Of a stretch of DNA of 64,000 nt, positions 5,674-57,991 are shown one piece after another. Below the pieces are notes generated by a model. That model was not told the DNA's origin, did no database searches, and saw only the letters and a program-made list of their open reading frames with translations. The number at the start of each line of letters is the position of its first letter. The stretch's first letter is position 1. Origin of the DNA: Candidatus Saccharimonadota bacterium (GTDB lineage Bacteria; Patescibacteriota; Saccharimonadia; Saccharimonadales; JACOTW01); the NCBI GenBank assembly GCA_016178135.1, contig JACOTW010000012.1, positions 1,064 to 65,063 on the forward strand, in the 5' to 3' direction. Made by a program: the position numbers and the translations under genes.

Positions 5674-6168
5674 CTAAACCGCAAATATGTTACCAACTAT
5701 TATGCCGATCATGGTTGCCAAGCCACCTATTATGAAGATTTCTAAAGCACTTTTGATTGGTGGGACATCAACAACCTTGCCCTTCACATAACCTAGTGCT
5801 AACAAGCATATCAAGGCTGCAATTATAGCAACGTTTCTTGAATAGCTAATCGGGAAGAAGATAATGGCCAGTAATGGTACTAAGCCAGCAAGAAAATACG
5901 CCCAAAACATAATAATGCCACTTACTACGGGAACTCTAAAAGACTCACTTTTATCAAGTTGATGAGCAGATTTAGAACTAAGATACTGACCTGAACCCAT
6001 AGAAAGAGCTTCAACTAAAATAGTTACTACGCCAGCCAAGATAACCACCTGTTTATTGCGCGTGCCGGTGCTGATACCTACAATGACACCAGTTGTTGAG
6101 ACCAAGGCATCATTAAACCCAAACATAGCACTCTGTAGATATTCTTTTTGTATACTGGATTTTCTCAA
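5674..6168 (-). CDS. VIT1/CCC1-family membrane protein (iron/manganese transporter-like)
   Basis: FGFNDALVSTTGVIVG and EALSMGSGQYLSSKS resemble the conserved VIT-family segments. C-terminal TM helices. Confidence 0.65.
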   Translation of the reverse strand: MRKSSIQKEYLQSAMFGFNDALVSTTGVIVGISTGTRNKQVVILAGVVTILVEALSMGSGQYLSSKSAHQLDKSESFRVPVVSGIIMFWAYFLAGLVPLLAIIFFPISYSRNVAIIAALICLLALGYVKGKVVDVPPIKSALEIFIIGGLATMIGIIVGNIFAV

Positions 6169-8482: not shown

Positions 8483-8539
8483 AACCGTCCTATTCGTATT
8501 ATAAATAACATGAGTTCAAAATCCAGTATACTATAAATT

Positions 8540-9781
8540 ATGCGCATTATAGAGCCGCTTATGCTTGAGTCTATCAAAAAAAAGCATCGGCCAAGGCGAT
8601 TTGTAAGAATTTTTCTGCTTATTCTAGTGGCATTACTTATAGGTTACGGAGCTATTGCTTATACCAATCCCCTGCCACCTATATCGCCAGTAATGACCGC
8701 TAAGCTTGATTTAGTCAATGAACCAGTGCCTATACCTTGGTCCGCCCAAGGACAGGCCGCTATCGGCGCACAAGGTTATGGGGTACTTTCCGAGACCCCA
8801 CACCAAAAAGCCCTGCCCATGGCTAGCGTGGCCAAGGTCTTTACTGCTTATATGATATTGAAAAAGCGACCATTGGAGCGTGGCGCAATCGGACCTGGGA
8901 TCACTATTACTAATGCTGATATTGACATATATAACCATTACATAACACTTGGCGGATCCGTTTTACCGGTTTTTGTTGGCCAACAGTTTTCCCAATACCA
9001 GGCCTTACAAGCACTTTTATTACCTTCGGCAAACAATATCGCTGATCTATTGGGGAACTGGGCTTATGGGTCTGTTTATGATTATAGTGTGGCCGCAAAT
9101 GCGGAGTTAAAAGTTCTAGGTCTTCGTGATACGCATATCGCTGATGCTAGTGGTTTCTCTTCGGAGACAGTTAGTACGCCGCACGATTTAGTTTTGCTTG
9201 GCGCCATTGTTTTGGCTAATCCCGTTATCGCTCAAATTGTCGATTTGCCACGTATTCAATTACCCGCGGTAGGTACAGTAGCTAATACCAACAAGCTCGT
9301 TGAGAATCCGGAAATTATAGGAATAAAAACAGGTCATACTAACGAATCTGGCGGTTGTTTTTTGTTTGCCGCCCGCCACAAAGTTGTGCCTGGAGAATTT
9401 GTTACGGTTATTGGCGCTATTATGGCTGCGCCGGATATTATCACTGCTCTTGACGGTGCTATGCCCTTACTCGAGGCGACTTATAGGGGGTTTGCAGAGG
9501 TTACGCTCATAAAAAGCGGTCAAAAGATTGGTGAATACAGAATTCCCTGGGGTGGCAGGGTTAATGTGGTGGCTCAAGCAGACGTTCGTGAGGTCCTATG
9601 GAAAGGTACTAAGCCAACGATAACCAGTGGCCTTGAGTCAATAGACGGACCACGCAAAATCAATGATGAAGTTGGTCGTCTGTCCATTGATGGTGGGCCG
9701 CTCAAGGTGAGCATTCCGGTAGTCCTTGACCAAGCAGTTATTTCGCCGTCTATAAAGTGGCGAGCCACAAGGATTTTTTAA
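8540..9781 (+). CDS. D-alanyl-D-alanine carboxypeptidase (serine-type, PBP5/6-like)
   Basis: SxxK (SVAK), SxN (SANN) and KTG (KTGHT) motifs in the correct order. N-terminal TM. Confidence 0.8.
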   Translation: MRIIEPLMLESIKKKHRPRRFVRIFLLILVALLIGYGAIAYTNPLPPISPVMTAKLDLVNEPVPIPWSAQGQAAIGAQGYGVLSETPHQKALPMASVAKVFTAYMILKKRPLERGAIGPGITITNADIDIYNHYITLGGSVLPVFVGQQFSQYQALQALLLPSANNIADLLGNWAYGSVYDYSVAANAELKVLGLRDTHIADASGFSSETVSTPHDLVLLGAIVLANPVIAQIVDLPRIQLPAVGTVANTNKLVENPEIIGIKTGHTNESGGCFLFAARHKVVPGEFVTVIGAIMAAPDIITALDGAMPLLEATYRGFAEVTLIKSGQKIGEYRIPWGGRVNVVAQADVREVLWKGTKPTITSGLESIDGPRKINDEVGRLSIDGGPLKVSIPVVLDQAVISPSIKWRATRIF

Positions 9782-9833: not shown

Positions 9834-10754
9834 ATGATAAAGACGAAAAAAATACAACTTGATGATTTCATTGTGCCGATTAATATCAATGGGCTGCATG
9901 GTAGAATGCTTCGTTTACCGTCGCCTAAAGCTAGAAAACGTGAAATCCTGCTAATTTACGGCCAGCATTCCAATTTGGAACGTTACTTTGGCTTAGCTGA
10001 ACTTTTTAATGATTTTGGCGGTGTTACGATGCCAGATTTACCTGGTTTTGGTGGCATGGGTAGTTTTTATAAGATTGGCGAAAAACCAACACTGGATAAT
10101 TTGGCAGATTACATGGCGACTTTTATAAAATTACGCTATCGTGGTCGACGCTTGAGTATTGCTGCTATATCATTTGGTTTTGCGGTGGTTACGCGTATGT
10201 TGCAAAAATATCCCGACATAGCCAAAAAAATCGATTTAGTTATCAGTATTTCTGGTTATGTTAGACATGATGAATTTAATCTTGGTAGATCAAGGTATTT
10301 TTTGTTGAGATTTGGGTCGTGGCTACTTTCGTCACGTTTATTATCTGTATTTTTTCGCAATATAGCCCTACATCCCTATGTTATTAGGGGTTATTATAAA
10401 AGATTTGCCGAGCTACCTCCTAAATTGTCGGCATCTGACCAGCAAAAAATAATTGACTTTGAGGTTTATCTTTGGCGTTGCAACGATCTAAGAACACATA
10501 TGTACACAACAAATGCTAGGTTGCGATTGGATAATTGTACAGGTTCAGTAAAAATACCGGTATGGTATGTGCATGCCGATATGGATGTTTCTCTGGACAG
10601 CGCTGTCGTGGAACAACACATGCAAGTAGTTTTCTCGGATTTTCACGCTGTGAGTGTTAAGCGCGAGGCCGGGAAATTTTATATTTTTGGAGATAAAAAA
10701 ACCGCACGGAAACTTATTTCTCCCCAACTTCGCCATGTTTTGCGCCAAATCTAA
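9834..10754 (+). CDS. Alpha/beta-fold hydrolase
   Basis: LLIYGQHS...MPDLPGFGGMG and a nucleophile-elbow-like AISFGF. Confidence 0.5.
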   Translation: MIKTKKIQLDDFIVPININGLHGRMLRLPSPKARKREILLIYGQHSNLERYFGLAELFNDFGGVTMPDLPGFGGMGSFYKIGEKPTLDNLADYMATFIKLRYRGRRLSIAAISFGFAVVTRMLQKYPDIAKKIDLVISISGYVRHDEFNLGRSRYFLLRFGSWLLSSRLLSVFFRNIALHPYVIRGYYKRFAELPPKLSASDQQKIIDFEVYLWRCNDLRTHMYTTNARLRLDNCTGSVKIPVWYVHADMDVSLDSAVVEQHMQVVFSDFHAVSVKREAGKFYIFGDKKTARKLISPQLRHVLRQI

Positions 10755-13408: not shown

Positions 13409-14580
13409 GACTTGTCTGTAATTTTATCAAGTAATTCTGTGGCGATGGTTAGGCATTCGGTTTTGACTGCTTGCGCTGTGCGACTGTCCGTGACCTTGAA
13501 GCCACTGGCGTAAACGTGCCCACCACCGCCAAAATGAGATGCCAAATCGGCCGCGATGCTGGCACCGGCATTACATCGGATTGAACCGGTAATTTTGCCG
13601 TCATTATAAACTTTCAAGACTATCGCTACTTTTACGCCTTCGGTTTGTAGCATGTCTGTTTGAATAAGTGGGGCTGGATTGTATAGCGGACTGTATTTCA
13701 TTAGTTCATCATGCCCAATACTGACTAATGCGATTCTGTCATCGCTCAATAATTCAGTTCTGTCTATCAGGGTAGCTTTGTATTTAAAAATCGTTTTGGG
13801 CATCTTGGCCTGTGCGCGACGAGCTTCCTCGAGTTTTATTCTGTTAACTCCGCCCTCTATGAGGTCGGCCATAATTCTATAGGTATTTGGCGTTGTGCCT
13901 TCGCTGGAAAGCCCCAGGGAATCTGATAGGATTGAACTAGTGATATGGGTTTTTGCCTGGAGGTTGAGCGGCCAGTTTAGCTCATCGGCCAGTTTATAAA
14001 TCACTTCGCCGGTTGCTACGGCATCATGATCATTTATGACAAGTGTAGCGTAGGTTATGTCGCACTCCACATCAGTGTGATGATCGAGTACGATTACTGG
14101 CTTGGAAGCTACGATGCTTTTGTAGCTACTGTTGTCGAGTTTCTCCAGAAGGATTGCAGCACTAGTGTCTACTATGATGCTTAAGTCGATTTTGTTCGGA
14201 ATCTCCTTACTGACTCTGTCCCAGCCGTCCAAATGACGCAAGTATTCTGGAATATTTACACCACAATACAGAAATGTTTGCTTGCCTGCGTCCCCCAGTA
14301 TTTCCTCAAGTGCCAGGGCACTTCCCAGACTATCCCCATCCGGGTTATCCGCCTGGATTATTGCAATCCGCTCTGATTCATCAACCAACTTCTTAATACC
14401 CTGGTATAGCCCCCGCAAAACAAATTCGGGGGTTTTGGAGCCGATGATCTTCGAGTCAAAAACTGGCTTTTCTGAGGGAAGCATATCATTAGATAAGGTG
14501 AGTGAGGAAAGACAGCTTTTGACCGGAGAGGGCGGTTCAAAAAGCAGTGAATTTGTTTTGCGGGGGCTATAATTATTCAT
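13405..14580 (-). CDS. DHH/DHHA1 phosphoesterase (NrnA-like) carrying an in-frame family-B element after codon 3
   Basis: DNPDGDSLGS, DHH and GGGH motifs. ATG overlaps the recR stop (ATGA). Confidence 0.8.
   Translation of the reverse strand: MNNYSPRKTNSLLFEPPSPVKSCLSSLTLSNDMLPSEKPVFDSKIIGSKTPEFVLRGLYQGIKKLVDESERIAIIQADNPDGDSLGSALALEEILGDAGKQTFLYCGVNIPEYLRHLDGWDRVSKEIPNKIDLSIIVDTSAAILLEKLDNSSYKSIVASKPVIVLDHHTDVECDITYATLVINDHDAVATGEVIYKLADELNWPLNLQAKTHITSSILSDSLGLSSEGTTPNTYRIMADLIEGGVNRIKLEEARRAQAKMPKTIFKYKATLIDRTELLSDDRIALVSIGHDELMKYSPLYNPAPLIQTDMLQTEGVKVAIVLKVYNDGKITGSIRCNAGASIAADLASHFGGGGHVYASGFKVTDSRTAQAVKTECLTIATELLDKITDKS
14405..14571 (+). mobile_element. Family-B element, copy B1 (167 bp including both TA), intragenic
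   Basis: Termini TATAGCCCCCGCAAAACAAATTC ... GAATTTGTTTTGCGGGGGCTATA. Confidence 0.9.
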
Positions 14581-15595: not shown

Positions 15596-15762
15596 TATAG
15601 CCCCCGCAAAACAAATTCGGGGGTTTTGGAGCCGATGATCTTCGAGTCAAAAACTGGCTTTTCCGAGGGAAGCATATCATTAGATAAGGTGAGTGAGGAA
15701 AGACAGCTTTTGGCCGGAGAGGGCGGTTCAAAAAGTCGTGAATTTGTTTTGCGGGGGCTATA
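15596..15762 (+). mobile_element. Family-B element, copy B2 (167 bp), intergenic
   Basis: Differs from B1 at 4 positions by manual alignment. Same orientation. Confidence 0.9.
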
Positions 15763-15765
15763 AGC

Positions 15766-16944: not shown

Positions 16945-17032
16945 GAATTTCTTAAGTAGTATACATCGAAAAAGGAAAAACTGTTTGCAACCGGCTTGGG
17001 ACAAGCTGGTATCAACGGCTAACTGGACCTGT

Positions 17033-17182
17033 CGCAAAACTCCTCCATCCCCAGATCGAATTCTATCGGCTACAAACAGTTTTTCTTCTCTCGATGTAGC
17101 TACGGCTACCTCTCCTTCAGACAAAACAGTTTTCGCTCAAGATAATTCACTCTGGGAACGGACGATTTTGCGACAGATCCAG
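17033..17182 (+). mobile_element. Family-A element, copy A4 (150 bp, CTGTCGC subtype), intergenic
   Basis: CTGGACCTGTCGCAAAAC ... ATTTTGCGACAGATCCAG. Flanks are CTAA and TTAA. Confidence 0.85.
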
Positions 17183-17200
17183 TTAAGTTCAGTAAAAAGA

Positions 17201-18563: not shown

Positions 18564-20279
18564 CTACTCTAGCACTTCAGCGCCACCGAAGATATTGCTT
18601 ATGGTTCCCAGTGCTGTTGACGGCGCTTTGATCACTGGTTTATCAATGGCGGACTGTACATCCATGTTCTTAACAACAATACAATTTATGGAAATTTTTT
18701 TACCAGTTTGTTCATACAAAATGGATTCGATTGTCGCTTTATTTTTGGATTCGTTAAGTTGTTTTTGATGAAATGGAAAGCCGAAGCTAAGGGTCAATAC
18801 GTCATCATTTAATTCTGCGGAAGCCATACGCGCAAGGCTATATAGTGTGTTGTGTTTGTTTTTTATAGCTACTAACGCGGCCGGCCATATATTAGATTCA
18901 TGCAAAGTCTTCTCGTTCCCAGACTGGCCAACCTCGGCTGATTCGATATTTTTGTCAGATAAGATTTTTTGCGGTTCTTGTTTTTGGATGGTAGTAGTCT
19001 GCTGGGAGGTGGTTTTTTTGGTGTGGTTCTTTGGAGTTTTCTTGTGCGATACGGGTAACGTGGCTGGTGGTGCTAAGCTCGATTTATGCGAAATCTCCGC
19101 ATCCCCAGACCAACTAATCTCAAGCGGTAGCGGTCTGCCTTCTTTCGATGTAACTAAGGCGGCTACCTCTCCTTCAGTCAAACCACTATCTGCTCGAGCT
19201 GATTTAGCCTGGGAACGGGCGATTTTGCGTAAGTCCAGTGAATGATCTTCTGATTCACTTTTGGCTAGCCCAGTAGAATGCGAGGTTTTGCGTAGGTCTA
19301 GGGACTGCTTTGTTTTGGTATTCTCCAGGGCTGCTCCGATAAGCGTGATTTCCAGCGCCGAGGCTGGATCGTGAGCAGTTGGTACGGTCAGTAACTTTTC
19401 CAAGATTGAGGTAAATGCAGATGGCTCAAAAGACCATTCGCCATCCAGTAGATCATGGCGTAATTGTGCACTTAGTTGTTTGGCTATTTGACCAGGGTGA
19501 AAGCCTTGCTCGGATAGTTCGTCAAGCAGTTTAACTACTTCTTTTGCTGCACCTTCACTAACGACCTTTTTAAGTTGTGTTATAACTGCATTGGGAGCAA
19601 TTCCCAAAACTTCAATAACGTTATTCTCGCTAATATTTTTACCACTACTTGCTATTTGGTCGAGTAGGCTTATGCTATCACGGAATGATCCATCCCCGTG
19701 TTTAGCTATAAGCTCAAGAGCACCGTCGTCTATGTCAATATTTTCTGATTTGGCAATTGTGCGCAGATGTTGCGCGACTTTATGGGTTTCTATCGGTTTA
19801 AAAGTAAAACGCTGAGTTCTGCTGATTATGGTTTCCGGCAATTTGTGGGCTTCTGTGGTTGCCAAAATAAAAATAGCGTGCGCTGGTGGCTCCTCAAGCG
19901 TTTTTAAGAGAGCGTTGAAAGCTTCTCGGGTCAGCATATGTACTTCATCAATAATGTAAACTTTGTATTTCGTGCTGGTCGGGGTATTGTGTACTCGTTC
20001 ACGAATTTCTCTAATTTCATCAATTCTTCGGTTGCTCGCGGCATCAATCTCAATAATATCGAGATGCGATCTATCATCATCGTAAGGCAAATTATTAACT
20101 TCATGCGCTAAAATTCTGGCAATACTGGTTTTACCAGTGCCACGTGGTCCAGTAAATAAATAGGCGTGACTTATAGAGTTATTTTTTATGGCATTCTTGA
20201 GGGTCGTGGTGATGTGTTCCTGTCCCACTATTTCAGATAATTTCTTAGGTCGGTATTTCCGATACAATGCTTTCCCCAT
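18564..20279 (-). CDS. dnaX: DNA polymerase III gamma/tau subunit with in-frame family-A element
   Basis: YRPKKLSEIVGQEH, GPRGTGKTS, IIDEVHMLT, LLKTLEEPP. Confidence 0.9.
   Translation of the reverse strand: MGKALYRKYRPKKLSEIVGQEHITTTLKNAIKNNSISHAYLFTGPRGTGKTSIARILAHEVNNLPYDDDRSHLDIIEIDAASNRRIDEIREIRERVHNTPTSTKYKVYIIDEVHMLTREAFNALLKTLEEPPAHAIFILATTEAHKLPETIISRTQRFTFKPIETHKVAQHLRTIAKSENIDIDDGALELIAKHGDGSFRDSISLLDQIASSGKNISENNVIEVLGIAPNAVITQLKKVVSEGAAKEVVKLLDELSEQGFHPGQIAKQLSAQLRHDLLDGEWSFEPSAFTSILEKLLTVPTAHDPASALEITLIGAALENTKTKQSLDLRKTSHSTGLAKSESEDHSLDLRKIARSQAKSARADSGLTEGEVAALVTSKEGRPLPLEISWSGDAEISHKSSLAPPATLPVSHKKTPKNHTKKTTSQQTTTIQKQEPQKILSDKNIESAEVGQSGNEKTLHESNIWPAALVAIKNKHNTLYSLARMASAELNDDVLTLSFGFPFHQKQLNESKNKATIESILYEQTGKKISINCIVVKNMDVQSAIDKPVIKAPSTALGTISNIFGGAEVLE
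19078..19238 (+). mobile_element. Family-A element, copy A5, intragenic in dnaX (left terminus degenerate)
   Basis: CTCGATTTATGCGAAATCTCCGCATCCCCAGACC ... GATTTTGCGTAAGTCCAG. Confidence 0.8.
19286..19301 (+). repeat. Orphan family-A right terminus inside dnaX
   Basis: TTTTGCGTAGGTCTAG, 47 nt from A5. Translated as a second LDLRK. Confidence 0.6.
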
Positions 20280-27676: not shown

Positions 27677-27836
27677 CTGGACCTGTCGCAAAACTCCCCC
27701 ATCCCCAGACCAATTCATCTCGGCTGGTAGCGGTCTGTCTTCTCTCGATGTAGCTATGGCTACCTCTCCTTCAGTCAAACCACTCCCACCTCGAACTGAT
27801 TTGCCCTGGGAACGGGCGATTTTGCGACAGGTCCAG
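27677..27836 (+). mobile_element. Family-A element, copy A6 (160 bp, CTGTCGC subtype), intergenic
   Basis: CTGGACCTGTCGCAAAAC ... ATTTTGCGACAGGTCCAG. Direct TCTA at 27673-76 and 27837-40. Confidence 0.9.
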
Positions 27837-27873: not shown

Positions 27874-28875
27874 CTATATACCGGCTGTAGATACTGGAAT
27901 ACTTGGACCCATAGAGGTAGTAACGTACAGGCTTTTTAGGTAGATGCCTTTTAGGCCAGTAGGTTTGGCGGACTTAATGCTAGCCATCACTGTTTCGGCA
28001 TTTTGAGCTAATTTTTCTTTGCCAAAACTTACTTTTCCAATACCAAGATGAATTATGCCAGTGCCATCAACGCGATATTCAACGCGTCCAGCCTTGGCCT
28101 CTTTCACTGCCTTTGCTACGTCGGTGGTTACAGTACCACTTTTAGGGTTTGGCATCAGACCTTTAGGCCCAAGAATACGCGCGTATTTACCCAACTTGGC
28201 CATTACTTTAGGTGTGGCGATTAATACGTCAAAATCCATAGTTCCTTTATCTAGCTGTTGAAGGAATTCTTCACTACCAGCAATGTCGGCACCAGCCTTC
28301 TTGGCGGCTGTTACATCGTTTGCCTCACCAAATACGGCGATGCGGATATTTTTACCCGTACCAGCAGGCAAAGTAACGGTTCCGCGAATATTTTGATCTG
28401 CTTGCTTAGGATCAACACCTAGTCGTATGTGTAATTCGACAGTGGCATCGAATTTAGCAGGATTGGTTATGGTAGCTAATTCAAGAGCTTCCGGCAGTTC
28501 ATATAATTTATCTTCGATAATTTGATCATGTAGCTTTCTATAATTTTTGCTACGGCGTTCTAGGCGTGTGCGGGGTTTCTTTTGTGCTGGTTTTATTGTT
28601 GCTTTTGCCTCAACTGTTTTACGCTCTTCTTTCTCTTGCTTGGCTACCGTTTCTTGGATGGCTTTAATACTTCTTTTGCCTGATTTCGCGAGTGGCTTAT
28701 CGGTCGTAGCGGAGGGCTTACTGGACTGACTCAAAGCTCCTTCATCTCTACTGGACTTAATAACCTCGGGTGCCACTTCTTTGATTGTGGTTGATGTCTT
28801 TTTCTTGACGGCGGTTGTTGGTAGCTTACTTTTTACTTTTTTTTCGGTCATGTGCTTTATCCTTTCGTGGTTCAA
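27874..28875 (-). CDS. rplA: 50S ribosomal protein L1 with an about 105-aa Lys/Thr/Ala-rich N-terminal extension
   Basis: FDATVELHIRLGVDPKQADQNIRGTV and the C-terminal L1 core. Confidence 0.9.
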   Translation of the reverse strand: MNHERIKHMTEKKVKSKLPTTAVKKKTSTTIKEVAPEVIKSSRDEGALSQSSKPSATTDKPLAKSGKRSIKAIQETVAKQEKEERKTVEAKATIKPAQKKPRTRLERRSKNYRKLHDQIIEDKLYELPEALELATITNPAKFDATVELHIRLGVDPKQADQNIRGTVTLPAGTGKNIRIAVFGEANDVTAAKKAGADIAGSEEFLQQLDKGTMDFDVLIATPKVMAKLGKYARILGPKGLMPNPKSGTVTTDVAKAVKEAKAGRVEYRVDGTGIIHLGIGKVSFGKEKLAQNAETVMASIKSAKPTGLKGIYLKSLYVTTSMGPSIPVSTAGI

Positions 28876-33638: not shown

Positions 33639-33650
33639 GTTTTTATTATA

Positions 33651-33890
33651 CTGGGCCTGTCGCAAAATCCCTCGTTCCCAGGACGAATCAGCTCGAGCGA
33701 AAACAGTTTTGTCTGAAGGAGAGGTACCCAGGAGGTATAGTCCCCGCAAAACAAATTCGTGGGTTTTTGAAGCAATGATCTTTGAGCCAAAAACTGACTT
33801 TTCCGAGAGAGACATATCCTTAGATACGTTGAACGAGGAAAGGCGGTTTTGGGCCAAAGAGGGTGATTCGAAATTTTGCGACAGGCCCAG
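33651..33890 (-). mobile_element. Composite: family-A element (CTGTCGC subtype) carrying a nested truncated family-B element
   Basis: CTGGGCCTGTCGCAAAATCCC...GGTACCCAGGAG | TATAGTCCCCGCAAAAC...GATTCGAAA | TTTTGCGACAGGCCCAG. Direct TATA at 33647-50 and 33891-94. Confidence 0.85.
33736..33873 (+). mobile_element. Family-B subtype B' (right terminus missing), copy B3, nested in A
   Basis: 138 nt. Differs from B4 at 2 positions by manual alignment. Confidence 0.85.
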
Positions 33891-33978
33891 TATAGGACCT
33901 TCGTACTTTGTCGCCAATTCCAGAGTAATCCTGCAGCCCTCTAGGATTGGTCTGGGGTGATGAAAAAGTAGGAAAAAC

Positions 33979-34701: not shown

Positions 34702-34861
34702 CTGGACCTGTCGCAAAATCCCTCGTTCCCAGGGCGAATCAGCTCGAGCGAAAACAGTTTTATCCGAAGGAGAGGTACCAGGGAGGTACATCGAGAGAGG
34801 AAAAACTGTTTGCAGCCGAGATTAGTCGGTCTGGGGATGAGGGATTTTGCGACAGGTCCAG
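34702..34861 (-). mobile_element. Family-A element, copy A9 (160 bp, CTGTCGC subtype), intergenic
   Basis: Perfect termini. Direct TAGA at 34698-701 and 34862-65. Confidence 0.9.
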
Positions 34862-35462: not shown

Positions 35463-36152
35463 GTGAGCAGTTATAGCCCCCGCAAAACAAATTCGTGGGT
35501 TTTTGAAGCAATGATCTTTGAGTCAAAAACTGACTTTTCCGAGAGAGACATATCCTTAGATACGTTGAACGAGGAAAGGCGGTTTTGGGCCAAAGAGGGT
35601 GATTCGAAAAGAGCTTATTATCTAACACAGTTTGACGCGCTGGAAGCTCTAGACAACGGTGTTGGTAATTGTTTTTCGAAAGCTATGGTTGCATGTGGAA
35701 TAATAGTATTAAAATATGCGGTTGAGCCGTCAATAGTTTATAAAAAGTCGATACATGGCTCTAAAGATACTGCGATTGATAAGCCTACGGACTCAAAAAC
35801 AGGCAAAAAAATCGCGCATGTGGTTGTAGCCGTACCCGGTTCAAATCCAACTACAGATAAATCTATTCCGGGCTTGAATTTTGGAGTAGCAGTTTCCCAA
35901 GGAGTTAAATTTACCCAAACAGATGCAGGTGAAATACTACAGGATTATAATGAACCCGGAGAATTTGTACGTGTTAATGAAACGGGCACAGTGATTGCTA
36001 CTGAAATTGCTACTGAACGGGGTATGTTTGGTGATAGGTGGCGGGATATTGCTCCAGATTATTTACAAGCTTTGGACAGACCTGACCTGGACATAGATCT
36101 CTTAATTGGTAAGCTCAAAGAATCATACCCAGATGATCAAGTTGCGGCATAG
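35463..36152 (+). CDS. Hypothetical protein. The first about 49 codons derive from family-B element B4. Possible Cys-His peptidase-like core.
   Basis: GTG start at 35463. No alternative ATG before residue 75. GNCFSKAMVAC ... AHVVVAV noted, but this is a weak motif. Confidence 0.4.
   Translation: MSSYSPRKTNSWVFEAMIFESKTDFSERDISLDTLNEERRFWAKEGDSKRAYYLTQFDALEALDNGVGNCFSKAMVACGIIVLKYAVEPSIVYKKSIHGSKDTAIDKPTDSKTGKKIAHVVVAVPGSNPTTDKSIPGLNFGVAVSQGVKFTQTDAGEILQDYNEPGEFVRVNETGTVIATEIATERGMFGDRWRDIAPDYLQALDRPDLDIDLLIGKLKESYPDDQVAA
35472..35610 (+). mobile_element. Family-B subtype B' copy B4 (right terminus missing)
   Basis: TATAGCCCCCGCAAAACAAATTCGTGGG...GGGTGATTCGAAA. Confidence 0.85.
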
Positions 36153-36229: not shown

Positions 36230-36306
36230 TGGCAGGGGTGGAGGGATTCGAACCCGCGGCCTTTGGTTTTGGAGACCAACGCTCTAACCAACTGAGCTAC
36301 ACCCCT
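36230..36306 (-). tRNA. tRNA-Trp (anticodon CCA), CCA encoded
   Basis: Reverse complement AGGGGTGTAGCTCAGTTGGTTAGAGCGTTGGTCTCCAAAACCAAAGGCCGCGGGTTCGAATCCCTCCACCCCTGCCA. Confidence 0.9.
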
Positions 36307-36584: not shown

Positions 36585-36628
36585 AACTCAAAAAGTTTAA
36601 CAGATTAGAATAGAATATGCAATATCTA

Positions 36629-36785
36629 TTGGTCTTACGTAAAATCTCTTGTCTCCAGGGTGAATCGGCTCGAGCGAAAACGGTTTTATCCGAAGGAGAC
36701 GTACCCGAGCACATCGATAGTCGATAGAACTGTTTGTAGTCGAGATTAGTCGGTATAGGAATAAGGGAGTTCTAGCTAAGTTCAG
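36629..36785 (-). mobile_element. Family-A element, copy A10 (degenerate termini), between tRNA-Thr and rpmG
   Basis: TTGGTCTTACGTAAAATC...GGGAGTTCTAGCTAAGTTCAG. Ends 3 nt from the tRNA-Thr 3' end. Confidence 0.75.
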
Positions 36786-36788
36786 GTT

Positions 36789-36863
36789 TGGAGCCGTTGA
36801 CGAGAGTTGAACTCGTGACCCCCTCCTTACCATGGAGGTGCTCTACCACTGAGCTACAACGGC
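36789..36863 (-). tRNA. tRNA-Thr (anticodon GGU), CCA encoded
   Basis: Reverse complement GCCGTTGTAGCTCAGTGGTAGAGCACCTCCATGGTAAGGAGGGGGTCACGAGTTCAACTCTCGTCAACGGCTCCA. Confidence 0.9.
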
Positions 36864-42251: not shown

Positions 42252-43121
42252 CTACAGACTGACCATAAGTGAACTTAATAATAGCTTAATATTGGGTTTG
42301 TGTTTAAGCGATGTTTCGGCTTTAAAAAGTTCTTGCATTCGCAAATGCCAGCGTTTGCTCAAAGTCAAGTCGCCTTTTTCGATAGATTGAATCAGCGCCG
42401 CTCGGCTAACTTGTTTTAGTGCGTAGAAAAGCGAGGTAAGTTCTTCTTTTTTACCAACAAGACTATCGACTTCTATCAGTCGCTGATACGTGGTTGATCC
42501 CAGGAGCTTTTTAGCCAGATTCACATGTTGGTTCAATATGTTTTCTGTGTTTTGAGTCAAGAGGCTGTGCATTAGTCCAATCTGCCCACTACTTACGTGG
42601 TATGCTCGAACGATTTCTTGATTGGTAATTCCCTGCTTGCTAAAAAAATCAATAAGCTCTGTTTTTGATGGAGCGAGTAAACGGGCGTGCTGTACCCTTG
42701 AATATATCGTACTACGCAAACCACGTTCGCCATTTTCGGTTAGGATGATTCTTGTATCAAGTGGCGGCTCTTCTAGTATTTTTAAAAGAGCATTTTGAGC
42801 TTCTATGGTCATACTTTCTGAATTTTCTATTACAATAACCCGACGAATCGTTGCTTTGCCCGATGTTTTAAGTTGAAGAAAATGCCGCAAATCTCGTACA
42901 GCATCGATGCCAAGTGAATTTTCACCCCCCCGTAAACGCATGAATCCTGGATTGATAATAAGCTTGTCGAGCTTGACATCAAGTAATCTACCGGCAAGAT
43001 TTAATGCTACGAATTTTTTGCCCGCGCCATTTGGACCACTGATGAGCAGGGCGTGTGCTTGGCTTTTAATGAATTGCTCAAGTTGTGCGGAAACTGTTTT
43101 ATTTATTAATAAGTCCATCAC
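42252..43121 (-). CDS. holB: DNA polymerase III delta' subunit
   Basis: LLISGPNGAGKKF, AQNALLKILEEPP. Confidence 0.75.
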   Translation of the reverse strand: MMDLLINKTVSAQLEQFIKSQAHALLISGPNGAGKKFVALNLAGRLLDVKLDKLIINPGFMRLRGGENSLGIDAVRDLRHFLQLKTSGKATIRRVIVIENSESMTIEAQNALLKILEEPPLDTRIILTENGERGLRSTIYSRVQHARLLAPSKTELIDFFSKQGITNQEIVRAYHVSSGQIGLMHSLLTQNTENILNQHVNLAKKLLGSTTYQRLIEVDSLVGKKEELTSLFYALKQVSRAALIQSIEKGDLTLSKRWHLRMQELFKAETSLKHKPNIKLLLSSLMVSL

Positions 43122-44188
43122 GAATCCAGTAAATTAAAAAATTCTTCGGGTACTGGCACCTGAAATGTCATGTGCTTACCATTTTTCAGTGTAAGCTCTA
43201 GTTTTTCGGCGTGAAGGTATAGCCGATCAGCGGACTGGCCGTCGTATATCGTATCCCCTACAATAGGATAGCCTAGCTTTTTTAAGTGCACGCGTAGTTG
43301 ATGGGTGTGCTCAGTGCGCGGTTTTAGTTCAACTAAATCATAATTTTTTCCTGATTTAACAACATTGTATTCCGTTTGTGCCGTTTTGCCATTTATGCCA
43401 GTTCTAAATGTCTGTGGATGCTTAGGATTCCGCTCTATAGGCATATCAATAATCGCATGCGCAGGTATAATATGGCCAAAAACCACTGCTTTATAAGTTT
43501 TATATACCTTACGTGTAGAGAATTGCTTTTGAAGCCAGCTAAGCGAAGTATTGTTTTTGGCGCAAATAATAACCCCAGAGGTCGCCCTATCCAGACGATG
43601 AACAATCCCCTCTCGAGTTTGCATGGAAGATTTCTGCGAGTCCGATAAACTGGACTTACCCAAAGCTCCCTCATCCCCAGACCGACTAACCTCGGCTACA
43701 AACAGTTTTTCCTCTCTCGATGTACCTTCAGGTACCTCTCCTTCAGACAAAACTGTTTTCGCTCGAGCTGATTCGCCCTGGGAACGAGGGATTTTGCGTA
43801 AGTCCAGTAAACTAGTATTTTGTTGTCTAGCATGTTTATTCAAGTGATCGAATAGCCAAGTTGCGATGGTTGCTTCGGGATTGAACGCTCCTTTGCTGTG
43901 CGTCAACAACCCAGCTGGTTTATTTATAACAACACAGTCGTCATCTTCGTACAAAACCGGCAATTCTATTCTGGGTATATCTTCAGTTGTATTTGGATCA
44001 AAATCAATGTTAATTTGATCTTCTAACCTTAGTTTATATCCGGTTTTTTTGATCTCGTCTCCTACAGTTATAAACCCTCGGTTGCATAATTTTTGAACAT
44101 GCGCCCTACTGATTTGAGGTAATTTGTTATGTACAAAAACATCAAGCCTCTCTCCTGCAGAGGTTTTAGGCACCGTTACTTGTATCAT
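43118..44188 (-). CDS. rluD: RluD-type 23S rRNA pseudouridine synthase (S4 domain + RluA core) with in-frame family-A element
   Basis: N-terminal S4 domain (ERLDVFV...). Catalytic HRLDRATSGVIICAKN. Confidence 0.85.
   Translation of the reverse strand: MIQVTVPKTSAGERLDVFVHNKLPQISRAHVQKLCNRGFITVGDEIKKTGYKLRLEDQINIDFDPNTTEDIPRIELPVLYEDDDCVVINKPAGLLTHSKGAFNPEATIATWLFDHLNKHARQQNTSLLDLRKIPRSQGESARAKTVLSEGEVPEGTSREEKLFVAEVSRSGDEGALGKSSLSDSQKSSMQTREGIVHRLDRATSGVIICAKNNTSLSWLQKQFSTRKVYKTYKAVVFGHIIPAHAIIDMPIERNPKHPQTFRTGINGKTAQTEYNVVKSGKNYDLVELKPRTEHTHQLRVHLKKLGYPIVGDTIYDGQSADRLYLHAEKLELTLKNGKHMTFQVPVPEEFFNLLDS
43650..43807 (+). mobile_element. Family-A element, copy A11 (158 bp), intragenic in rluD
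   Basis: CTGGACTTACCCAAAG...ATTTTGCGTAAGTCCAG. Direct TAAA at 43646-49 and 43808-11. Confidence 0.9.
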
Positions 44189-44189
44189 G

Positions 44190-45275
44190 CTACGTACGCA
44201 ATCCTACGGCTTTTTGAACTTTAGCGAGTATTGTTTCAGCAATTTTACACATAGCGGTCTCGCTCATTGCCAACTTTTGCTCCAATGCTTTAGTATCAAC
44301 CATTTCTAATTTTGTCTGAAAATCCTCTAAAAATTGCCCCGTTAATATCGCGACGGCTTCTTTGAGTGGACCGTATTGCTTGGAACCGATAAATTCATGC
44401 TTTCTTCCGCCGAATAGCTCTAAAATATCCAATAAATTACTTATACCTGGCTGGGTAGTATAGTCATATTTGATCTCGCCTAGACTATCAGTAGTTGCGG
44501 ATTGAATTTTTTTGTGAGCTTGTTCCGGCGTATCATTTAAGAATATAACTCCCTTGCCCGATGCATCTGATTTACTCATTTTTTTAGCGGGATCAAGTAA
44601 ATCGCGTATACGTAGACCTTGGTCTTTGCCGAAAAATTCATGCTGCTCTTTAGCTGATTTCGGTACGATAAATAATTCACCAAACTTACTATTCATTCTT
44701 TCGGCAATATCACGTGTAAATTCCAGGTGTTGTTTTTGGTCATCTCCAACCGGTACGTATATAGCCCCATACAAAAGTATATCCGCAGCCATAAGTACAG
44801 GATAATCGAATAGCCCCATACTTACATGATTTTGTTGAAACGCATTCTTTGGATTAGCAGAAAAGGAATCTTGTCGAGCTGATTCACCCTGAGAACGAGG
44901 GATTTTGCGTAAGTCCAGTTTATCCTTAAACTGGGTCATGCGAGACATCTCTCCAAATCCAGTAAAACTATTCAGAATTATAGTAAGCTCACTATGTGCC
45001 GGCACATAACTTTGACGATAAATGTGTATATTTGGGTTGTCCAGCGGCAAACCAGCGGCTGCAAATACCCGCAGGTTATTCATAATGCCAGCCTGAAGTT
45101 GGCTGTGATCAATCGGTGTAGTAAAACTATGTAAGTCCGGAACGAACAAATTGATTTGATAATCATCGGCATGCCGTCGAGCCATATCAATTATAGGCAA
45201 AAGCGCCCCCAGATAGTTGCCTATATGTAGGTCATTATTAGCCCTAAGTCCGGTCAAAATCACTGGCTTATTCAT
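44190..45275 (-). CDS. trpS: Tryptophanyl-tRNA synthetase with a 15-codon family-A remnant
   Basis: HIGNYLGA (HIGH), KMSKS, YPVLMAADILLY. ATG at 45275 is chosen because upstream residues are translated repeat A13. Confidence 0.9.
   Translation of the reverse strand: MNKPVILTGLRANNDLHIGNYLGALLPIIDMARRHADDYQINLFVPDLHSFTTPIDHSQLQAGIMNNLRVFAAAGLPLDNPNIHIYRQSYVPAHSELTIILNSFTGFGEMSRMTQFKDKLDLRKIPRSQGESARQDSFSANPKNAFQQNHVSMGLFDYPVLMAADILLYGAIYVPVGDDQKQHLEFTRDIAERMNSKFGELFIVPKSAKEQHEFFGKDQGLRIRDLLDPAKKMSKSDASGKGVIFLNDTPEQAHKKIQSATTDSLGEIKYDYTTQPGISNLLDILELFGGRKHEFIGSKQYGPLKEAVAILTGQFLEDFQTKLEMVDTKALEQKLAMSETAMCKIAETILAKVQKAVGLRT
44874..44918 (+). repeat. Family-A right-arm remnant (45 nt) inside trpS
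   Basis: TCGAGCTGATTCACCCTGAGAACGAGGGATTTTGCGTAAGTCCAG followed by TTTA. Confidence 0.85.
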
Positions 45276-45327: not shown

Positions 45328-45484
45328 TAGGACTTACGCACTTTGTTACCAATGCCAGAGTGTAGCTGGGTGAGCGAAAACGGTTCAGGTTCTGGAGGGG
45401 TAGCCATAGCTACACCGAGAGAACATGGGCCGTTTGTAGCCACATAGGTTAAGTCTGGTGTGGTAAGAAAGTGCGTAAGTCCTA
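45328..45484 (-). mobile_element. Family-A element, copy A13 (157 bp), between rpsI and trpS
   Basis: TAGGACTTACGCACTTT ... AAAGTGCGTAAGTCCTA. Flanked by TATA on both sides. Confidence 0.8.
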
Positions 45485-49382: not shown

Positions 49383-49408
49383 GAGATACCTCTTTTCGAG
49401 AGCTTAAA

Positions 49409-49551
49409 CTGGATTTACGCAAAACCGCTCGTTTCCAAAGTGATTCAGACCGACCCAAAACAGTTTTACCTGAAGGTACATCAAAAGAATAAAAACCGTT
49501 TGTAGCCGAACTGAATCGGCCTGGGGATGAGGGAGTTTTGGGTAAGTTCAG
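49409..49551 (-). mobile_element. Family-A element, copy A14 (143 bp, eroded), between rpmJ and rpsM
   Basis: CTGGATTTACGCAAAACCGCTCG...GGGAGTTTTGGGTAAGTTCAG. Confidence 0.8.
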
Positions 49552-49608
49552 CATACGACTAAATCCGACCGCTGTATTAGCTGCATTATATGTTCCATGC
49601 ATAAAATA

Positions 49609-57848: not shown

Positions 57849-57991
57849 CTTGACTTACGCAAAATCGCTCGTTCCCAAGGCGAATTAGCTCGAGCGAAAA
57901 TAGTTTTGTCTGAAGATACATCGAGATATGAAAAACTGTTTGCAAGCGAGGTTATTCGGTCTTCGGATAGGACAACTTTGTATGAGTCCAG
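57849..57991 (-). mobile_element. Family-A element, copy A16 (143 bp), between rplV and rpsC
   Basis: CTTGACTTACGCAAAATCGCTCG...CTTTGTATGAGTCCAG. Direct TAGA at 57845-48 and 57992-95. Confidence 0.85.

Follow-up and report, generated by a model that had tools for sequence, protein, structure and literature searches.

The question raised by this locus is how an essential gene came to contain, in frame, one arm of a mobile element, and what became of the rest of that element. The gene, trpS, lies on the minus strand at positions 44190–45275 of the window (the whole 64,000-nt stretch of DNA that was analysed). It encodes a tryptophan–tRNA ligase (TrpRS) of 361 aa that is identical to NCBI proteins MBI1857420.1 and MBI3338170.1 of Candidatus Saccharibacteria bacterium. 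Within it, the 45-mer TCGAGCTGATTCACCCTGAGAACGAGGGATTTTGCGTAAGTCCAG occupies positions 44874–44918, and TTTA directly follows it at 44919–44922.

We characterized the element family to which this segment was attributed, here called family A, by a repeat search and an nhmmer profile over the 64-kb window. It consists of ~158-nt palindromic elements (158–161 nt), with about 15 copies that are full or nearly so, plus several fragments. Full copies end in CTGGACTTACGC...GCGTAAGTCCAG, which form terminal inverted repeats, and seven copies are flanked by a perfect 4-bp T-N-N-A duplication (TTTA, TCTA, TAGA in three cases and TAAA in two). The family thus shows the features by which a miniature inverted-repeat transposable element (MITE) is recognized, namely a short, multicopy element with terminal inverted repeats or a hairpin, a target-site duplication (TSD) and no transposase coding. 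In the 158-nt subfamily, the element together with its TSD measures 162 nt, or 54 codons, and is free of stop codons in the frame in which genes read it. Another, sister subfamily, whose ends are GGACCTGTCGC, measures 160 nt, or 164 nt with the duplication (not divisible by three), and is found only outside long open reading frames (17023–17186, 27677–27836, 34702–34861 and 33647–33735).

Full in-frame copies are found at 914–1071 in a UvrD/AddA-like helicase-nuclease (UvrD_C domain), at 19078–19239 in DnaX and at 43650–43807 in an RluD-like protein. These three copies all read LDLRKI(A/P)RSQ..., and TrpRS uses the same LDLRKI... frame. The full copy nearest to the trpS segment is the one at 43650–43807 (plus strand, 158 nt, TAAA as TSD on both sides). 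It lies in frame in the rluD-like pseudouridine synthase gene (43118–44188, minus strand), where it contributes 54 extra residues starting with LDLRKIPRSQGESAR, and it forms one hairpin over its whole length (–31.8 kcal/mol, z = –6.4). Two further occurrences of the family were seen in other settings: a copy at 36626–36785 lies in a tRNA cluster, between the tRNA genes at 36233–36306 and 36792–36863, and a weak left-arm-like remnant at 28719–28775 (nhmmer E = 9e-5) lies in an open reading frame upstream of a ribosomal protein L1 domain, where it may sit 5΄ of the true rplA start and not in the protein.

Beyond the window, the 54-residue peptide gave only 42 hits among 1.84 billion representative proteins; in public sequences it occurs in frame in a glycosyltransferase (twice), a TlyA/FtsJ methyltransferase, a DHFR, an epimerase, a DUF1361 protein and a lysozyme-like protein. 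The terminal 28-mer had no exact match in JGI metagenome contigs, and family A was not detected in the ~20-kb loci of five other Saccharibacteria. Therefore, the family is narrow in distribution but dense where it is present. No parent insertion sequence with the same ends and no long-range pair of terminus motifs was seen in the 64-kb window, and Rfam returned no family at the element coordinates.

To what extent does the trpS segment belong to this family? When up to three mismatches were allowed, the 45-mer occurred at two sites in the window, compared with 0 expected from 100 shuffles. The second site (43763–43807) lies within the full element of the rluD-like gene and differs at two bases, both synonymous third positions. 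The same arm of 12 other family copies matched the 45-mer at 35–43 of 45 bases, compared with 27–35 of ~44 for the opposite arm. The best match (43/45) was the copy in the rluD-like gene, 1.1 kb away, and the eleven others reached 35–41/45; two diverged family copies shared merely 11 locally matching bases. The nhmmer profile, which was made from six full family copies, matched positions 44869–44922 at model positions 113–166 of 167 (E = 1.5e-12). The proposal of the first-pass annotation that the 45 nt are the right arm of family A followed by TTTA was borne out by these arm matches and by the profile hit. The arm ('right' as read on the plus strand) at 44874–44918 is accordingly element-derived sequence.

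The structure of the remnant is identical in a related strain that is ~99.4% identical in DNA and is represented by three independent assemblies (NCBI GCA_040960765.1 and two Logan SRA assemblies). Given that no match is expected in shuffled sequences, that the profile hit has an E-value of this size and that four independent assemblies agree, both a chance resemblance and an assembly artefact or chimera were ruled out, and we give them practically no weight.

The boundaries of the remnant are informative with regard to its origin. It stops at the exact element terminus ...GTAAGTCCAG, and the adjoining TTTA on the plus strand (44919–44922; TAAA in the orientation of the gene) lies outside the element as a retained copy of the T-N-N-A target, forming part of the conserved GAT AAA codons for Asp118-Lys119. 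The locus thus combines a significant family match with a canonical terminus beside T-N-N-A. An intact member has both termini and both target copies, and trpS has one terminus and one TAAA, as a truncated remnant does. No nhmmer match to the other arm was found in or near trpS. We consider that a 158-nt element inserted at GA|TAAA in trpS and was then reduced by a one-sided deletion of ~123 nt, and we assign this reading a probability of roughly 0.7.

That the terminus adjoins TAAA, a T-N-N-A sequence, argues for true transposition over the copying of an arbitrary block. Copying could be envisaged in the form of template switching or of filler DNA at break repair, by which the 45 nt would have been taken from the rluD copy with no transposition in trpS. 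This copy is the best match (43/45) and the nearest (1,111 bp), and it has the same orientation, frame and peptide. However, copying would need to begin precisely at the terminus and to place the block precisely behind a T-N-N-A, as true insertions do, and microhomology between the two upstream junctions is limited to 1 nt (TTTA|CTGGAC versus TAAA|CTGGAC). Moreover, copies of the same 'ACGAGGG' subtype are also found at 33647 and 34698, and the likeness to the rluD copy may be mere subfamily membership. We therefore regard copying as improbable.

At the protein level, the arm is read on the minus strand as TrpRS codons 120–134, LDLRKIPRSQGESAR, between QFKDK and GLFDYP, in agreement with the earlier statement that it is translated in frame in the loop after RMTQFKDK. 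The peptide begins directly after Asp118-Lys119, of which K119 is listed as invariant. Lys119 probably corresponds to Lys111 of Bacillus stearothermophilus TrpRS, which contacts ATP and stands where a mobile loop begins, and the offset in the PDB alignment (query residue 150 to chain residue 117 in 1i6k) agrees with this numbering. Solved TrpRS structures align to residues 1–119 and 146–359 only and skip the insert. In an AlphaFold2 model of the protein, the mean pLDDT was 83 and residues 124–147 fell below 50, and the remnant stretch is probably disordered as judged from this model.

We compared the length of this loop among orthologs, as the first-pass annotation had suggested. In 84 of 121 Saccharimonadales TrpRS sequences, QFKDK and GLF(D/N)YP are separated by an 11-aa loop (consensus SAKLNEDRISV), and another 36 (about 30%) carry unrelated inserts of 14–89 aa at the same loop position. 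The loop of the TrpRS studied here is 34 aa long. Two relatives, P0053 (L004) and P0153 (L085), both from ENA sample ERZ27247837 and 68% identical to each other and to the studied TrpRS, have loops of 21 aa (LKREPFPTNPANSFQQNHVSV and SKREPFPDDPKDAFQQNHVSI) without the arm, with the signature (S/L)KREPFPxxPxxxFQQNHVSx. The studied loop ends in ...SFSANPKNAFQQNHVSM, and its distal 19 residues, QDSFSANPKNAFQQNHVSM (codons 135–153; 44817–44873, minus strand), are homologous to the 21-aa loops of these relatives. The relatives share this distal part only and lack LDLRKIPRSQGESA; a similar loop of equal length in a lineage free of family A, which would have spoken against an element origin, was not encountered. 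Because the 21-aa loop is found in arm-free TrpRS, the loop was expanded before the insertion.

The corresponding DNA reads GAT AAA TYA AAA CGA GAA CCN TTT CCT... in P0053 and P0153, and GAT AAA [CTG GAC ... TCA GCT CGA] CAA GAT TCC TTT TCT... in the studied trpS, and the unoccupied form of the site is GATAAATYAAAACGAGAA. Relative to the 21-aa state, 15 element codons were gained and two (S/L and K) were lost, for a net gain of 13; relative to the common 11-aa loop, the gain is 23 codons. The statement that 15 codons had been retained thus holds for the element codons, but the net gain is 13, since the loop was already 21 aa long. The P0053 and P0153 contigs, of 1.7 and 12.4 kb, share the gene order and gave no family A hit, and both the rluD site and the trpS site are empty of the element there.

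A neighbour-joining tree of a reduced set of 57 taxa, built from the protein outside the loop, was star-like, and the studied TrpRS, P0053 and P0153 did not form an exclusive clade (0/100 bootstraps), nor did P0053 and P0153 group together. The nearest relative of P0053, P0137, carries the plain 11-aa loop. The lack of a clade for the expanded-loop proteins may reflect lack of resolution in the tree, or the loop segment may have been transferred between lineages by recombination. It is by the shared loop signature only that the 21-aa loop might be called 'ancestral'. Whatever the tree, the distal loop is, judged by its sequence, homologous to that of genomes without family A at this place, and it is this homology on which the size of the remnant depends.

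The distal loop also bears on the possibility that the insertion is much older. It could be supposed that one old insertion was common to P0053, P0153 and the studied gene, such that the 10-aa extension and the arm are both ends of a single ancient element; P0053 and P0153 would then have lost 12–13 more codons, and the arm studied here would have been kept family-like by gene conversion. The loop signature common to TrpRS sequences that otherwise do not cluster would fit this course of events, and so would the alignment of S-x-R and R-(Q/E) in the two loop forms (...GE-S-A-R-Q-D-S-F versus S-K-R-E-P-F). At the position of the terminus (TAAGTCCAG), P0053 has TAATCCAG; next to it, the studied TrpRS and P0153 have a Lys codon, where a TSD-derived AAA would fall. 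However, the arm is 96% identical to the nearby copy, compared with ~26% base divergence in the neighbouring trpS codons, and the loop is evolving faster, not slower, than the rest of trpS. The trpS loop gave no nhmmer left-arm signal, no family A was detected in the P0053 and P0153 contigs, and gene conversion would require flanking homology, which an old decayed remnant would not offer. We consider a single old insertion unlikely.

The weak likeness of the distal loop (...TAATCCAG/TAATCCAAAG) to the element terminus TAAGTCCAG is not significant and comes with no nhmmer left-arm match. A relic of the left terminus in the remaining 24 nt of excess loop (TTGGATTAGCAG versus CTGGACTTACGCA) was likewise considered and rejected, as the similarity is weak by eye and had no nhmmer match; the idea is also superfluous, because P0053 and P0153 show that this stretch is older loop sequence.

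A more far-reaching speculation, which we hold with equally little confidence, is that the hypervariable loop after Lys119 in Saccharimonadales TrpRS was built by repeated element insertion and trimming, with the arm as its newest layer. The older 10-aa extension, which also occurs in two TrpRS from non-sister lineages, may then be an earlier element-derived layer spread by recombination, and many of the 14–89 aa inserts elsewhere may have the same kind of origin. One other insert was checked, that of P0010, and had no repeat within its 21-kb locus, which was itself without repeats. If such layering were true, new loops in the proteins of these reduced genomes would come in large part from small palindromic elements.

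Under the preferred reading of insertion followed by one-sided deletion, the course of events would have been as follows. A non-autonomous, MITE-like element would have inserted at the TAAA of the invariant Asp118-Lys119 codons, into a loop that was already 21 aa long in this lineage. Element and duplication would have added 162 nt (54 stop-free codons), so that a surface loop was lengthened and the gene was not killed; with the element intact, the gene would have encoded DK-[52 aa]-S-K ahead of the old loop. A later deletion of ~123 nt would have taken out the distal 113 nt of the element, comprising its centre and its entire second arm, together with the 4-nt second TAAA and 6 nt of trpS, which are the first two codons of the loop. 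Alternatively, a 126-nt deletion between CGA(G) microhomologies (GCT CGA GCG in the element and AAA CGA GAA in the old loop) may have been accompanied by one codon change. In either case, the 45 nt adjoining Lys119 would have stayed, as a weakly constrained and probably disordered stretch of 15 residues. The statement of the first-pass annotation that the rest of the element had been deleted is supported by the absence of the other arm from the nhmmer results, but the deletion would also have taken a target copy and about two trpS codons.

The deletion junction was placed at about 44871–44876, with a breakpoint that is ambiguous by ~6 nt. Similarity to the family falls from 96% to background at one position of the remnant, which is the signature of a breakpoint and rules out gradual decay by point mutation. 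Over the arm, 2 of 45 bases differ from the rluD copy, compared with ~26% of bases between the neighbouring trpS codons and those of P0053 (codon alignment), and because of this difference we consider the arm to be young.

We infer a former full-length copy, a deletion of this size that occurred in one step, and the survival of only those alleles that preserved the frame. The 45 nt are indeed a multiple of three and in frame, as had been pointed out, but in an essential gene this reflects survivorship and is not a property of the decay. Intermediate-length remnants, for which a search had been proposed, were not found: 5.8 billion clustered proteins contained no full or intermediate-length insertion in trpS, and the sole other carrier of the remnant was P0001, which is 98% identical. 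The junction between trpS and the element had no match in JGI metagenome contigs, and a scan of a genome collection for TrpRS gave, among the matches listed, a best relative of 67% identity and no intermediate. A protein search with the loop and its immediate flanks brought up nothing beyond short TrpRS fragments. Shortened copies are also seen elsewhere in the window. The copy at 57849–57991 (143 nt) retains both termini and the TAGA duplication, so that it has a 15-nt internal deletion, and that at 49405–49553 (about 149 nt) has decayed, non-matching flanks. Shortened copies therefore arise outside genes too.

The remnant is presumably immobile, as a single arm is unable to form the hairpin: the trpS region gave a z-score of –1.1 and no end-to-end hairpin, compared with –6.4 for the full copy. 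A diverged relative of the family with termini TAGGAC...GTCCTA lies nearby in the rpsI–trpS spacer (45328–45484, minus strand), flanked by TATA. It is absent from the 99.4%-identical strain (contig L001, at about position 9950), so that there has been recent movement or loss in the family or among its relatives. The L001 allele, GATTG-TACA-TTTT, is one 1-nt indel and one substitution away from a clean empty site; insertion and imprecise excision both fit, and the allele may be an excision footprint. In the list of open reading frames, trpS reaches upstream across this element as far as a GTG (417 aa), probably a false start.

We further analyzed the selection acting on the gene and on the remnant. 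Between the two strains compared, dN/dS was 0.24 for the whole of trpS, and on this basis the gene is functional. Seven amino-acid changes distinguish the two TrpRS proteins, including R127S and N141D, and the arm itself contains one nonsynonymous (R127S) and one synonymous change. With very few changes in total, dN was 0.025 in the loop and 0.007 in the rest of trpS, and the difference in substitution density fell short of significance (Fisher P = 0.08). TrpRS as a whole is under purifying selection, and none is detectable on the remnant peptide. The earlier suggestion that elements decay inside genes by in-frame deletions under purifying selection is therefore consistent with the dN/dS of TrpRS, but no constraint is detectable on the remnant and the suggestion draws on one inferred event only. 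We regard such decay as a reasonable inference and not as a new principle.

The same data bear on whether the 15-residue peptide has been kept for a use in TrpRS, for example the binding of tRNA or a partner close to the catalytic Lys, which would be compatible with any origin of the segment. Both nucleotide differences from the rluD copy are synonymous, the peptide stands directly after the invariant Lys119 and the remnant was retained in both strains, as would be expected of an exapted sequence. However, two synonymous changes are compatible with chance, R127S separates the strains, and dN in the loop is ~3.5 times the value for the remainder of trpS. The predicted structure has a confidence below 50 in this region, and unrelated proteins carry this peptide simply through insertion of the element. 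Exaptation is thus highly doubtful.

We compared family A with known systems. Rickettsia palindromic elements (RPEs) are ~150-nt palindromes that occur in frame in unrelated housekeeping genes, where they encode a conserved peptide that surface regions tolerate (PMC10969869). Family A resembles them in that it consists of many copies of a ~150-nt palindrome in a small genome, in frame in unrelated open reading frames with a conserved peptide. It differs in its host, which belongs to Candidatus Saccharibacteria / Patescibacteria and not to Alphaproteobacteria, in its clear terminal inverted repeats and 4-bp T-N-N-A duplication, and in that the trpS copy is a one-armed stump. RPE copies are said to deteriorate with age, a finding attributed to Amiri et al. 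(2002, Mol Biol Evol). Family A thus works like an RPE but is not classed with the RPE families, in view of its host phylum and the absence of an Rfam family at the element coordinates.

Bacterial MITEs, such as Correia, ERIC, BOX/RUP, QMITE1 of Coxiella and Nezha, include some that make in-frame fusions (PMC10969869). With these, family A shares a short, non-autonomous and multicopy nature, inverted repeats, a TSD, a hairpin and, in its diverged relative, presence/absence polymorphism between strains. In contrast to them, it is very densely packed, with 15 copies or more in 64 kb, no parent insertion sequence is found in the 64-kb window, and the 158-nt subfamily has a length of 3n with its duplication and is open in the frame of the gene. 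With respect to the host protein, the insert is like the insertion loops of class I aminoacyl-tRNA synthetases, in which extra residues occupy a variable loop between conserved core elements. Unlike other lineage-specific loop inserts of synthetases, however, its DNA source can be named, and it is a mobile element. A full-text literature search on Saccharibacteria/Patescibacteria returned no description of such a palindromic in-frame family. Family A, of which the trpS stump is a truncated member, appears to be undescribed in the literature searched.

These results indicate that a lineage of Candidatus Saccharibacteria holds dense, small palindromic elements that land in frame in essential genes, much as RPEs do. 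The trpS case pictures the aftermath of such an event, in which the bulk of the element is lost and what stays behind is a short, probably disordered peptide beside a catalytic residue. The remnant in itself is a modest detail, for which the family and the recurrently expanded TrpRS loop provide the more interesting context. In candidate-phyla genomes, remnants of this kind account for unusual lineage-specific inserts in conserved marker proteins, and they can lead alignment, phylogeny and gene calling astray, as with the several small spurious open reading frames that are called on copies between ribosomal protein genes.

On contig L001, small open reading frames without a Pfam hit were found at 701–853, 1125–1244, 1681–1908, 5836–6063 and 8501–8641, between or overlapping ribosomal protein genes. 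At least that at 1681–1908 coincides with a family A copy, and these small reading frames were probably called in error on elements. The window also contains a second family of repeats, ~168 nt long (14405–14572, 15596–15763, 33736–33903 and 35472–35639), with copies at the breakpoints of synteny between the window and L001. One of its copies adjoins the truncated family A copy at 33647–33735, which suggests a nested insertion.
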